From positions 106,631 to 170,630 of the forward strand of contig JACQCZ010000014.1 of the NCBI GenBank assembly GCA_016201405.1: DNA of 64,000 nt, read 5' to 3'. Under the pieces are notes generated by a model. It ran no database searches, was not told the DNA's origin, and saw nothing but the letters and a program-made list of their open reading frames with translations. The translations under genes and the position numbers were made by a program. Each line of letters begins with the position of its first letter. Position 1 is the first letter of the stretch. The stretch is from Candidatus Acetothermia bacterium (GTDB lineage: Bacteria > Bipolaricaulota > Bipolaricaulia > RBG-16-55-9). Positions 37,297 through 40,066 of the stretch are shown piece by piece.

Positions 37297-38403
37297 ATGC
37301 TCACTGCGCAAATCTCGATCAAGCGCACAACTCGCGATTCAGAGCCATTTCAGATAGAGGTCTCAATCCAAGCCAGGCAGGGAATCACAACTCTCTTTGG
37401 CCCTTCGGGCTCTGGCAAAAGCTCAATCTTGCAGGCCATTGCTGGATTGTTAAAACCCGATGCCGGACACATTGAAGTGGATAATCAAATCTTCTTTGAT
37501 TCCACAAAGCAGATTGATCTGCCTCTGAGAGATCGCTGCGTTGGGTATCTCTTTCAAGATCTGGCTCTCTTCCCACACCTCAGTATTGAAGCCAATGTTG
37601 CGTACGGCCTGCACTCGTTGAATAAAAAAGAGAAGCATGAGAAGGCACTCCAGATTCTTGAGAGCTTTGGACTTCAGGCTATGGCATCGCGCAAGCCCAA
37701 GCAGCTTTCGGGAGGGCAACAGCAGCGAGTCGCATTAGCACGAGCTTTGGTCATCAATCCCAGAATCTTGTTATTAGATGAGCCTTTGTCGGCACTCGAT
37801 TCGGCCACCAAGCGCGATCTGATGGCTGAGATCAAGAGAGTGGCTCAAAATTTGTCTATTCCCATTCTCTATGTGACGCACAGCCGCGATGAAGTCTTGG
37901 CACTGGCGCATCATGTCATTGCCCTTGATCGGGGACGAGTCATTGCAGAGGGCGAGCCGCTTCAGGTCCTTGAGAACGCAAGCAACCCGACCATTGCACG
38001 GCTGACGGGTGTCGAGAATCTATTTGTTGGGAAAATAATGGACAAGCATCTAGAGCGCGGCACGATGACCTTTCAGATTGATAAGACTCTCTTAGAGATT
38101 CCGCTTACTGATCAGGCCGTTGGAGAGGTCATTCAGGTTGCGATTCGGGCTGGTGATATCTTGCTCTCGCTGGCAGAGCCGAAGGGACTGAGCGCACGAA
38201 ATCGCATCGTTGGAAAGGTACTAGAAGTCAATCCGCATGAGCACAATCAGCTAGTGCGAGTGGAGTCCAGTCCTGGGGTCGTCTTTTCGGTCTTGATTAC
38301 GAGCAGCGCTCAACACGAGCTGAATGTGCATCCAGGGAAAAATATTTGGCTGCTCATCAAGACTCATGCCTGTCATATTTTGGCTGGCAGAGATTCATAT
38401 TAA
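37297..38403 (+). CDS. modC: molybdate ABC transporter ATP-binding protein with C-terminal MOP/TOBE domain
   Basis: 368 aa; Walker A GPSGSGKS, signature LSGGQQQR, Walker B LLLDEP. Confidence 0.9.
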   Translation: MLTAQISIKRTTRDSEPFQIEVSIQARQGITTLFGPSGSGKSSILQAIAGLLKPDAGHIEVDNQIFFDSTKQIDLPLRDRCVGYLFQDLALFPHLSIEANVAYGLHSLNKKEKHEKALQILESFGLQAMASRKPKQLSGGQQQRVALARALVINPRILLLDEPLSALDSATKRDLMAEIKRVAQNLSIPILYVTHSRDEVLALAHHVIALDRGRVIAEGEPLQVLENASNPTIARLTGVENLFVGKIMDKHLERGTMTFQIDKTLLEIPLTDQAVGEVIQVAIRAGDILLSLAEPKGLSARNRIVGKVLEVNPHEHNQLVRVESSPGVVFSVLITSSAQHELNVHPGKNIWLLIKTHACHILAGRDSY

Positions 38404-38650
38404 CAGTAAATTTCTGGATTCCGGCTCGCGCTTCGCGTGGCCGGAATGACGGGCAAGAAAGCACCCGTCATTCTTGCTTAATTTCGTATGTCATTCCTGC
38501 GAAAGCAGGAATCCAGCGGCTTTCTGTTTTTGGCAAGATTCGTAGATTCCTGGCTTCCGGGTCTACACTTCGCTTGGCTGGAATGACAATCTTATTGATG
38601 CCTGTCATATTTTGGCTGATAGAAATGAATTTCAGTAAAGGCCCAGAAAT
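38366..38650. repeat. composite palindromic repeat insertion at the 3' end of modC: 21-bp perfect direct repeats flanking nested GGAATGAC/GTCATTCC hairpin units
   Basis: atgcctgtcatattttggctg at 38366-38386 and 38598-38618; hairpin units between them. See finding. Confidence 0.6.
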
Positions 38651-38766
38651 GCCAGAACCAGATTGACGATCCACGAGACCCATTTGATGCGGGGCTTTGA
38701 TTTTGCGGCCTTCTCCGACTCCTGCTGTTGGCCACTCTCTTTTATAACTCGCATATCTAGACCCTA

Positions 38767-39201
38767 TCACCTCTTAGCACACTCTTGACAGACTGATGAT
38801 CCTTTGTCAACCACACGTCCGCATTCGCGGCAATTGGACTTCAAATCTTCGTAACAGTTGGGGCAGATGGCATGCTCACGGCCAACCGGCTTTCCGCAGT
38901 GAGGGCATTTGGAGGTAAATGAAAGGTTAAACTTTGAGGCCTTCTCTGCCAAAGGCTCAGGATAGGCGCGCAGCCAGATGGCGATCTGTCTGCTGGCGCG
39001 GAACGAGAATGGAACCCAGAAAAAGGCAAAGATGACCCAACTGATCCATTCTAAGATGGGGGTCAGCTCGCGGGCAAAGAGAATTCCAACCCAGATCAGC
39101 AGCCAAAAGGGGAGCCAGCGAAGCCAGCCACCTCCAAACCACGAGATCGAGCAGATTCTCCGCTCAGATCTTCTCTCGCGTCTCCACGTGCGATAGCTCA
39201 T
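38767..39201 (-). CDS. membrane protein with C-terminal zinc-ribbon
   Basis: Tryptophan-rich TM helices followed by four CxxC pairs (CPHCGK, CPNCYE, CRECGR, CQEC). Start uncertain; the ORF extends to 39255. Confidence 0.5.
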   Translation of the reverse strand: MSYRTWRRERRSERRICSISWFGGGWLRWLPFWLLIWVGILFARELTPILEWISWVIFAFFWVPFSFRASRQIAIWLRAYPEPLAEKASKFNLSFTSKCPHCGKPVGREHAICPNCYEDLKSNCRECGRVVDKGSSVCQECAKR

Positions 39202-40066
39202 TGACTTCCAGTGACTCCTCGTATTCGACTCGCTCAATCTCGCAGCCCAGGCCAATGATCACATTTTTGCCGCGGACAATCTTGGCTTTGGTCGATTCCA
39301 AGTGAATCTCATCGCCTTCAATCGTTTCGGCTTCGAGCACACCATTGCCAATAAAGCCGCTCACGTGGATGCCAAAGTTACCCAAGCTCTCTTTGAGCTG
39401 CCCCATCATGTCGGCTATCTTCTCCAGATCAACATCAATGTTGACCCCGAAGTCATTGAACTTCCAGCGCTTTCCTCGTGCTTTCTCTTCCATGCGTCTC
39501 TTGAATTTATCTTGGTCAAAGCCGCCAAATTTCTGCAAGACTTCGATCTTTTCGCCGCCAATCTCACGGGCATGAGAATCCCCACCTAGCCGAATTGAGA
39601 TCTCGTCGGCGCTGAGCAGACCGCCAATCTCAAAAGAGCCTTCCGAGTTGAATTTGTCGGCCTCGACGTCACCGCCGACTGCGCATGTGCCGCTGATCTT
39701 GATATAGCTGGTAGTTAGCTTACCGCCGATCTTCTGCGTGCCAGAGCACTTAAAGACATCTGCTGAGACATCGCCATTGACCACCGCTGAGCCTGTGGTG
39801 CGCAGGTCTTCGGCTTTCACGTTGCCATCGACGCGGCATGAGCCTGCTGAGTGAAACTCTTCCGCTTCGGCATCCCCTTCGATCGCGCATGACCCTGCAA
39901 TGCTGATCGACTCGGCTTTGACATCACCGGCAATTGTCCCTGAGCCGGCCACTTTGATGCTCTGGTAGGTGCCGCCGCTGATCCGGCCCGAGCCGGCAAT
40001 CGTGACGCGCTCTGCGCCCTCTTCTTCTTTGGCCTCTGATCTCATGACCATAATCGCTCCTTTCAC
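39164..40066 (-). CDS. bactofilin-like (polymer-forming, beta-helical repeat) protein with two repeat domains
   Basis: 300 aa; repeated G-x-G beta-strand pattern (GSGRISGG, VAGSGTIAGDV, IAGSCAIEGD, ISGTCAVGGDV) typical of bactofilin/YhbE-YhbF-type proteins. Confidence 0.6.
   Translation of the reverse strand: MKGAIMVMRSEAKEEEGAERVTIAGSGRISGGTYQSIKVAGSGTIAGDVKAESISIAGSCAIEGDAEAEEFHSAGSCRVDGNVKAEDLRTTGSAVVNGDVSADVFKCSGTQKIGGKLTTSYIKISGTCAVGGDVEADKFNSEGSFEIGGLLSADEISIRLGGDSHAREIGGEKIEVLQKFGGFDQDKFKRRMEEKARGKRWKFNDFGVNIDVDLEKIADMMGQLKESLGNFGIHVSGFIGNGVLEAETIEGDEIHLESTKAKIVRGKNVIIGLGCEIERVEYEESLEVNELSHVETREKI

Follow-up and report, generated by a model that had tools for sequence, protein, structure and literature searches.

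How did a compact array of hairpins come to lie across the end of a transporter gene in an uncultured bacterium, and what has its arrival done to that gene? The DNA analyzed here (hereafter the window) is a 64-kb stretch (64,000 nucleotides) of contig JACQCZ010000014.1, from a metagenome-assembled genome (MAG) labelled Candidatus Acetothermia. On its plus strand modC (37297..38403) encodes a molybdate ABC transporter ATPase of 368 amino acids, recognized from the open reading frame (ORF) list and the Pfam domains ABC_tran and TOBE; its NCBI name is "molybdenum ABC transporter ATP-binding protein". The end of modC contains one copy of a 21-bp direct repeat, ATGCCTGTCATATTTTGGCTG, at 38366..38386 (plus strand; copy 1, the target duplication), and a second copy follows at 38598-38618 (plus strand; copy 2), with palindromic units of the dRS3/NTS/SRM repeat type packed between them. 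Comparison with a close relative, locus L203, shows that this segment is specific to the lineage of the window, where an insertion of 232 bp duplicated 21 bp of its target, since L203 has an empty site and its spacer is shorter by about the repeat period.

The two copies of the 21-mer, already noticed in an initial annotation of the locus, are exact and occur nowhere else in the window. Exactly two sites are found even when up to three mismatches are allowed (chance expectation 0.01), and two matches arose in 0/100 shuffles. A protein search placed the closest ModC relative (P0003, 87% identical) on the 22-kb JGI contig of L203, in which modB, modC, zinc ribbon, bactofilin, DUF4004, PspA, guanylate cyclase, two ABC exporters and AlaRS are syntenic with the window at a nucleotide identity of 85.8% across modB-modC and 85.6% downstream. 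The convergent downstream gene, which codes for a double zinc-ribbon protein (38767..39255, minus strand; Pfam DZR/DZR_2), is also present in L203. In a three-way alignment the L203 sequence passes from the left flank of copy 1 through a single 21-mer into the right flank of copy 2. The distance from the modC stop to the convergent zinc-ribbon stop is 364 bp in the window versus 131 bp in L203, and the difference of 233 bp is close to the repeat period of 232 bp. The insertion comprises a 211-bp interior plus one 21-mer. The interior (38387..38597), a non-coding hairpin mosaic delimited by the empty-site alignment, the spacer lengths and its fold, has the termini GCAGAGATTCATATTAACAGTAAATTT and GGAATGACAATCTTATTG and occupies the 3' intergenic space shared by modC and the zinc-ribbon gene. 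The first 31 nt of copy 2 equal the functional modC end of L203 at 31/31 positions, in surroundings that are ~86% identical.

On these comparisons, absence of the cluster is the ancestral state, because ModC relatives end soon after the shared motif (their C-termini run ...KTH(S/A)CH(L/I)(L/M), followed by 0-5 residues) and because the outgroup and other modC loci are free of such units. No NTS-type unit was found downstream of modC in the outgroup loci L204 and L205 (ModC P0006, 59% identical) or in any of the Acidobacteriota modC loci (0/80), whose ModC is ~45% identical and which served both for the C-terminus comparison and as NTS-free controls. In the reverse history the cluster was there before the split, and a precise recombination across the 21-bp repeats removed it from L203. 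This would leave exactly the L203 sequence, and two genomes alone give no polarity. We nevertheless consider it very improbable. It needs a gain and then a loss, two events where one suffices for the insertion, the outgroup P0006 and all 80 other modC loci lack the units, and it would require the non-coding copy 2 to have remained at 31/31 against a background of ~86%, for which the chance is about 0.86^31 ~ 0.01.

The consequences for modC can be read at both repeat copies. Copy 1 codes for (H)ACHILA(G), residues 357-364 of the 368, which form the conserved last strand of the TOBE domain; the final five codons and the stop (38387-38403, plus strand; G-RDSY) come from inserted DNA, and the protein now terminates in ...ACHILA-GRDSY. 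Copy 2 together with the stranded ancestral 3' end of modC (38598..38638, plus strand) is a fossil that lies outside the present ModC translation and preserves ACHILADRNEFQ and its stop codon. When translated from 38597, copy 2 gives DACHILADRNEFQ and a stop, and the old tail DRNEFQ persists 232 bp downstream. In L203 the functional gene ends in HACHILADRNEV before its stop, that is, in ACHILADRNEV. The initial annotation had suggested that an insertion rebuilt the ModC C-terminus and had called for a comparison with insert-free relatives; the empty site of L203, whose C-terminus matches the displaced copy 2, bears this suggestion out. Because the conserved last strand is retained and only the variable tail of 5-6 residues has been exchanged, the ModC of the window is probably functional.

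Two blocks of modC stand out in the same alignment. The 43-nt block at the modC end, TCATCAAGACTC + 21-mer + ATAGAAATGA (window 38350-38396), is 100% identical to L203, and the block at 37570-37689 is likewise essentially invariant between two sequences that are ~86% identical otherwise. We also asked whether the 3' portion of modC that precedes the repeat is a foreign recombination tract, and rejected this, as its divergence from L203 shows no clear jump.

What, then, was inserted? The 21-mer copies enclose three and a half palindromic units whose orientation alternates, in keeping with the earlier count of at least three hairpin units. Unit A (38414..38451, minus strand; CGTCATTCCGGC-(CACGCGAAGCGCGA)-GCCGGAATCCAG) is an NTS/SRM-type hairpin with perfect flanks on both sides, a G-C stem variant and a 14-nt loop that forms a further stem; its stem begins 14 nt past the modC stop codon. 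A solo 5' half-unit, CGTCATTCTTGC (38466..38477, plus strand), recognized by its sequence, stands head to head with the 5' end of unit A, and the two together make up the hairpin GAATGACGGG-N10-CCCGTCATTC (38444..38473), a perfect 10-bp inverted repeat (I6, 100% complementary). Unit B, TGTCATTCCTGCGAAAGCAGGAATCCAG (38489..38516, plus strand), follows the NTS consensus with a compensated change of one stem pair from C-G to T-A, and the identical 27-28-mer is present in many metagenome contigs. Unit C (38542..38588, minus strand; TGTCATTCCAGCC-N21-GCCAGGAATCTAC), located from repeats D2 and I2 and from the fold, is a degenerate NTS-like unit with two stem mismatches and an inner stem GTAGA/TCTAC. 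Besides this cluster the 64-kb window holds no NTS-type units. Compared with shuffled sequences the region is much more strongly folded: z = -4.0 for the 211-nt interior as DNA and z = -3.6 for 38380-38660 as RNA.

Short-read assemblies break at unit B, which brings up the idea that the structure is an assembly artefact or a chimera in the source MAG. We give this hardly any credence, since each half of the insert recurs base for base in one of two independent Logan assemblies made from other sequencing runs: the left half holds repeat copy 1 and units A and B, the right half units B and C and repeat copy 2. The identical ModC protein, from a 488-kb MAG contig, has also been deposited under two NCBI accessions (MBI1729988.1 and MBI3643294.1). 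Both Logan contigs terminate inside unit B and overlap by 26 nt only (38494-38519). Such breaks point to further copies of the unit-B 27-mer in the genome or community, or else to variation within the population at this position.

The units can be compared with a described family. The 28-nt NTS, CGTCATTCCCGCGMAVGCGGGAATCYRG, encompasses the Neisseria dRS3 repeat and has been generalized to "Ssn-related motifs" (SRM); it is the site that SsnA, a small single-domain GIY-YIG protein (cd10448), binds and cuts on single-stranded DNA, and the motif typically flanks the gene in the order NTS-ssnA-NTS (Chenal et al. 2025, PMC11893778). Unit B differs from the NTS at 3/28 positions, namely T at the first position and the compensated pair C-G to T-A, so that base pairing at the altered stem position is kept. 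Once oriented, unit A has the flanks CGTC...CCAG and unit B TGTC...CCAG, both of which fit, while the TGTC...CTAC of unit C fits in part. The strict dRS3 form ATTCCC-N8-GGGAAT is not matched: unit B has ATTCCT-N8-AGGAAT and unit A ATTCCGGC-N14-GCCGGAAT. By sequence, units A and B are shown to be members of the dRS3/NTS/SRM family.

Using unit B with its middle stem pair left free, we built a family pattern, GTCATTCC-N-GC-N3-8-GC-N-GGAATCCAG, which has 21 fixed bases and matched at least 120 IMG/VR contigs, where we roughly estimate that ~0.1 would be expected by chance. The free stem position carried a Watson-Crick pair in 166/168 recovered units (C-G in 126, G-C in 31, T-A in 5 and A-T in 4), and nearly all had a 4-nt GNNN loop. 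Because this position covaries, the hairpin itself is shown to be under selection. The G-C variant seen in unit A accounts for 31/168 family units and occurs in 99 IMG/VR stretches.

The T-A pair of unit B is the sole reason why this unit misses the published SRM search pattern, at the T. The variant, TGTCATTCCTGC-GNNN-GCAGGAATCCAG, is present in at least 120 JGI metagenome contigs and 15 IMG/VR stretches, and in 8-10 of 120 fetched loci it stands directly 5' of a ~97-aa GIY-YIG ORF (PF01541, E-values 1e-15 to 1e-18). At L283 (7160-7515) a forward T-A unit, an ssnA-like gene and a reverse C-G unit follow one another, and T-A units beside ssnA-like genes were also seen at L280, L319, L258, L247, L213, L293 and L297. 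Because the T-A variant is abundant in metagenomes and adjoins GIY-YIG ORFs, it would work as a bona fide Ssn-type site, and the published pattern is too narrow. Surveys that rely on it probably undercount the family.

No Rfam family reaches its gathering score in the insert region. The one suggestive match below threshold is to FtrB (RF02748) at window 38467-38532, in which the half-unit and unit B fall on a two-hairpin consensus. The consensus of this Francisella small RNA holds an NTS-type hairpin, GUCAUUCCCGCGUAGGCGGGAAUC, with a second hairpin before it, and some or all of FtrB may represent a transcribed member of the NTS-type repeat family.

Membership in this family also accounts for the peptides that had drawn attention to the region. 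VIPAKAGIQ (encoded by GTCATTCCCGCGAAGGCGGGAATCCAG), SRGRNDG and IPAFAGMT are literal frame translations of the repeats, and the insert frames yield WIPARASRGRNDG, VIPAKAGIQ and WIPAFAGMT. The initial annotation had linked such peptides to spurious ORFs elsewhere; they are indeed literal translations of the commonest hairpin-family variants, which give VIPAQAGIQ and VIPAKAGIQ, and unrelated contigs have spurious ORFs in which the same peptides recur. The literature, when searched for them, yielded no match. The ORFs 38346-38666(+) and 38468-38770(-) are artefacts, as suspected from the start: they have no Pfam match and appear in no public annotation, and the region is absent from L203. For the first of them, 106 aa long, a protein search found no homologue.

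How the hairpins entered is a matter of graded probability. Our preferred reading, which we hold to be rather probable, is a single insertion of 211 bp of hairpin DNA with a 21-bp duplication, most likely through insertion with long target duplication. This mode, inferred for restriction-modification genes from genome comparisons (Nobusato 2000; Furuta et al. 2010, PMC2853133), is favoured because the site has no recombinase and the insert no defined ends or copies. Ordinary transposition duplicates far less of its target than 21 bp. It is shown that after the split from the L203 lineage a single event put 211 bp of non-coding DNA, rich in hairpins, into modC at codon 364, with duplication of the 21-bp target. 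The insert is a small mosaic: three and a half hairpins of the dRS3/NTS/SRM type, alternating in orientation. As to the way in, foreign or ectopic DNA would have been joined into a gapped or staggered target whose overhang was then filled in. The duplication leaves the conserved ...HACHILA strand on modC, and translation runs five codons into the insert and stops there (GRDSY). In insertions of this class the duplicated stretch frequently covers a stop codon and so spares the adjacent gene, and the cases come mostly from naturally competent species (PMC2853133).

Several observations weigh against this account. Furuta et al. require more than 30 bp, and the repeat here is 21 bp when perfect and ~44 bp including the weak tail. 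Repeats of 21 bp fall in the range ascribed to site-specific recombination or IS1630 (PMC2853133). Flanking direct repeats were found at 9/397 NTS clusters versus 24/1323 controls (p = 0.54). We have a single filled/empty pair, and the mechanism of entry itself was not observed. The published SRM search pattern has 0 matches in the window (0.4 expected in shuffles), and no GIY-YIG ORF or ssnA is present in the 64 kb, which leaves an Ssn partner unproven for the genome. Finally, a role at the RNA 3' end is unsupported by any terminator-like pattern.

The direct-repeat footprint is not a property of the NTS family, because direct repeats are no commoner at the 397 clusters than at random positions. 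A 2.4-fold enrichment in a first, smaller sample had pointed to flanking repeats as a general NTS footprint, and it was gone with 397 clusters; the top flanking-repeat matches around NTS clusters are mostly tandem arrays or other repeats. We also discarded the idea that the junctions lie at the SsnA cut site (read from PMC11893778 as ~5 nt 5' of GTC), the right junction being 10 nt from unit C.

A serious rival, though in our judgement an unlikely one, is that the segment is the remnant of an integrative element. An integrase-bearing element with a 21-bp att core would have entered the 3' end of modC and supplied GRDSY as a surrogate end, in the layout B-O-P' ... P-O-B', and later deletions would have left just its hairpin-rich ends. 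The tails behind the repeat copies are central here. The initial annotation had described a degenerate tail of ~22 nt after each copy; such tails exist, and they are weaker than was implied, with 15/21 bases matching across a 3-nt gap. Codon-aligned, copy 1 reads GRDSY-stop-Q-stop and copy 2 DRNEF-Q-stop, and the similarity has P ~0.03-0.04 when the anchored alignment score is set against shuffles or AT-rich 30-mers of the window. A perfect 21-bp core that passes into a diverged yet alignable tail (P ~0.03) agrees with an att remnant, as does the coding length of the tail, which at 5 codons and a stop equals that in the relative and includes an Arg codon (AGA) common to both; the significance of the similarity is, however, marginal. 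A repeat of 21 bp is typical of att cores (PMC2853133), and NTS units are common in prophage-like contigs. Yet no integrase or transposase gene was found between the repeats or in the Pfam tables spanning about -10 kb to +20 kb, the interior is just 211 bp and all hairpin units, and modC is not hit repeatedly, no unit of this kind being present at 80 further modC loci.

The same layout is met in a xerC/D-like gene. At L313 (1-640) two copies of the 3' end of this recombinase gene, perfect over at least 100 nt, enclose a 450-bp insert of NTS-like units. Its two C-terminal tails, HPRARRDREAVPEA and HPRARRERGPAAEA, each before a stop, are equally long, and some of the differences between them are synonymous, as though two alleles that had both been functional were joined here; the att-remnant explanation can draw on this case too.

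The initial annotation had instead thought of a MITE-like insertion. In that explanation a non-autonomous transposon (a miniature inverted-repeat transposable element, MITE) would have been mobilized in trans by a long-duplication transposase of the insertion sequence (IS) types IS1630 or IS1634/IS1549. The 21-bp duplication falls inside the 19-26 bp of IS1630 (IS1634/IS1549 make 8-514 bp), and the insert is small, non-coding and highly structured. Its ends are weakly alike in a gapped comparison: the left one reads GAGATT-CAT, and the right one AAGATTGTCAT when reverse-complemented. Even so, no convincing terminal inverted repeats are present, and the repeat list of the window has no inverted repeat joining both termini. 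The spacers and termini have no second copy in the 64-kb window or in ~320 fetched repeat-bearing loci, no transposase lies nearby, direct repeats are not enriched around NTS clusters, and 21 bp is too long for a MITE duplication. We consider this origin improbable, and the MITE-like label does not hold for the modC-end insert in the data searched.

L254 offers a far more MITE-like relative of the window structure, and it speaks for a transposon. There (899-1122) a 178-bp insert that holds one NTS unit and is bounded by perfect 15-bp terminal inverted repeats (CCTGATTAGCCCTGA) lies between 23-bp direct repeats with one mismatch, and supplies the last codons, PD and stop, of a minus-strand ORF. 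At a further locus, L308 (874-1232), the last 41 nt of a minus-strand gene of 655 aa, including its stop (...HLFCIGSEKSASP), are duplicated around a 277-bp insert with two NTS units, and the displaced copy is frameshifted on the gene-internal side. L313, L308 and L254 all have NTS-bearing inserts bracketed by duplicated gene 3' ends; given that there is no general enrichment, they are anecdotal.

A bolder idea, which we consider improbable, is that ssnA-less NTS/SRM clusters are mobile by themselves, as single-stranded Ssn-processed fragments whose insertion copies a long stretch of the target. If this were true, the modC-end locus would be a fresh, datable footprint, with its filled/empty pair, intact 21-bp duplication and fossil gene end, and together with L313, L308 and L254 it would give a first handle on the spread of the repeat family, a question left open in Chenal et al.

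Whichever way it entered, the element is probably passive today. The cluster would form a structured 3' untranslated end of both modC and the convergent zinc-ribbon gene, and as such it may act as a 3' end stabilizer or as a partial barrier to exonucleases or read-through. The initial annotation had also proposed it as the modC terminator; we find no support for this, as the intrinsic-terminator pattern (a G+C-rich hairpin and a T run) has 0 sites in 38200-38900. E. coli REP elements that lie as near to a stop codon as unit A have been reported to disturb translation termination. Should the genome encode an Ssn enzyme, units A and B would be expected to be bound or cut on the YGTCATTCC strand when it is single-stranded.

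Further variants of the hairpin occur at other loci. Tandem arrays with a 132-bp period at L102 (1490-1710) and L178 (1620-1860) alternate the canonical NTS with a variant hairpin (CTGGACTCCCGC...GCGGGAGTGAC) in which ACTCC/GGAGT replaces ATTCC/GGAAT, and a third variant, GGATCCCCGC...GCGGGGATGAC, flanks ssnA at L119 and L202. The virus-like contig IMGVR_UViG_3300036760_001528 (45 kb; L125, L400, L403) carries 8 T-A-variant units at a GC content of 44-45%, and has no homology to the window besides T-A units. Because this contig comes from the JGI sample of L203, a T-A-rich organism or phage co-occurs with the L203 population.

Events of this sort have been described before, and the modC end is a clean case of one: its repeats belong to a known family, there are precedents for the mode of insertion, and no new system is involved. 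The locus demonstrates that an Ssn-type hairpin cluster can arrive as a discrete insertion in a genome region without ssnA, and that a gene can survive such a hit when the target duplication preserves its essential last strand. Its added value lies in a filled/empty pair for an ssnA-less cluster in an uncultured lineage. For annotators, peptides of the VIPAKAGIQ, WIPAFAGMT and SRGRNDG type are a practical flag of artefacts, and the T-A variant, common in metagenomes and ssnA-linked, escapes the published search pattern.

Among known systems, the closest in sequence is the dRS3/NTS/SRM family itself. The window shares with it the 27-28-nt unit with 5' YGTC and 3' CCAG, the ATTCCxGC / GCxGGAAT stem, the GNNN loop, and clusters in both orientations next to genes, and the stem variant of unit B stands beside ssnA-like genes elsewhere. 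It departs from the family in the T-A pair of unit B, the 14-nt loop of unit A and the degenerate unit C. Neisseria, Wolbachia and Rickettsia expand the motif to hundreds of copies, of which the 64-kb window gives no sign. With NIMEs and E. coli REP/BIME elements the cluster shares short palindromes in alternating orientation, variable spacers and a position between convergent genes. It differs in being a tiny array of three and a half units, single-copy as far as seen, and in units that open with YGTCATTCC and have no REP-type GTAG head. To our knowledge, a dated insertion footprint such as is visible here is no described feature of NIMEs or BIMEs.

Three kinds of mobile DNA resemble the insert in part. 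MITEs and long-duplication IS elements are likewise small, non-coding and strongly structured, and the length of the duplication is within the IS1630 range; MITE target duplications, however, are short and fixed (2-10 bp, against 21 bp here), and clear terminal inverted repeats, other copies and a cognate transposase are lacking in the data searched. CIMEs of streptococcal integrative and conjugative elements are att-flanked remnants at the 3' end of fda. They too combine a direct repeat of ~20-30 bp at the 3' end of a housekeeping gene with an element that supplies a surrogate gene end, but the modC-end insert has no recombination genes and is about ten times smaller. Rickettsia palindromic elements reportedly insert into protein-coding genes and are translated in frame as internal peptides; in both cases palindromic selfish DNA in an ORF is tolerated since the protein stays functional, while at modC five codons are read and the remainder is 3' untranslated.

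A further precedent is insertion with long target duplication, with which the modC end shares an empty site in a relative, a duplicated unique target spanning the stop region and the lack of a mobility gene. The difference lies in the cargo and the repeats. Known cases carry several-kb restriction-modification genes between repeats of more than 30 bp, whereas the modC end carries 211 bp of non-coding hairpins between perfect repeats of 21 bp.

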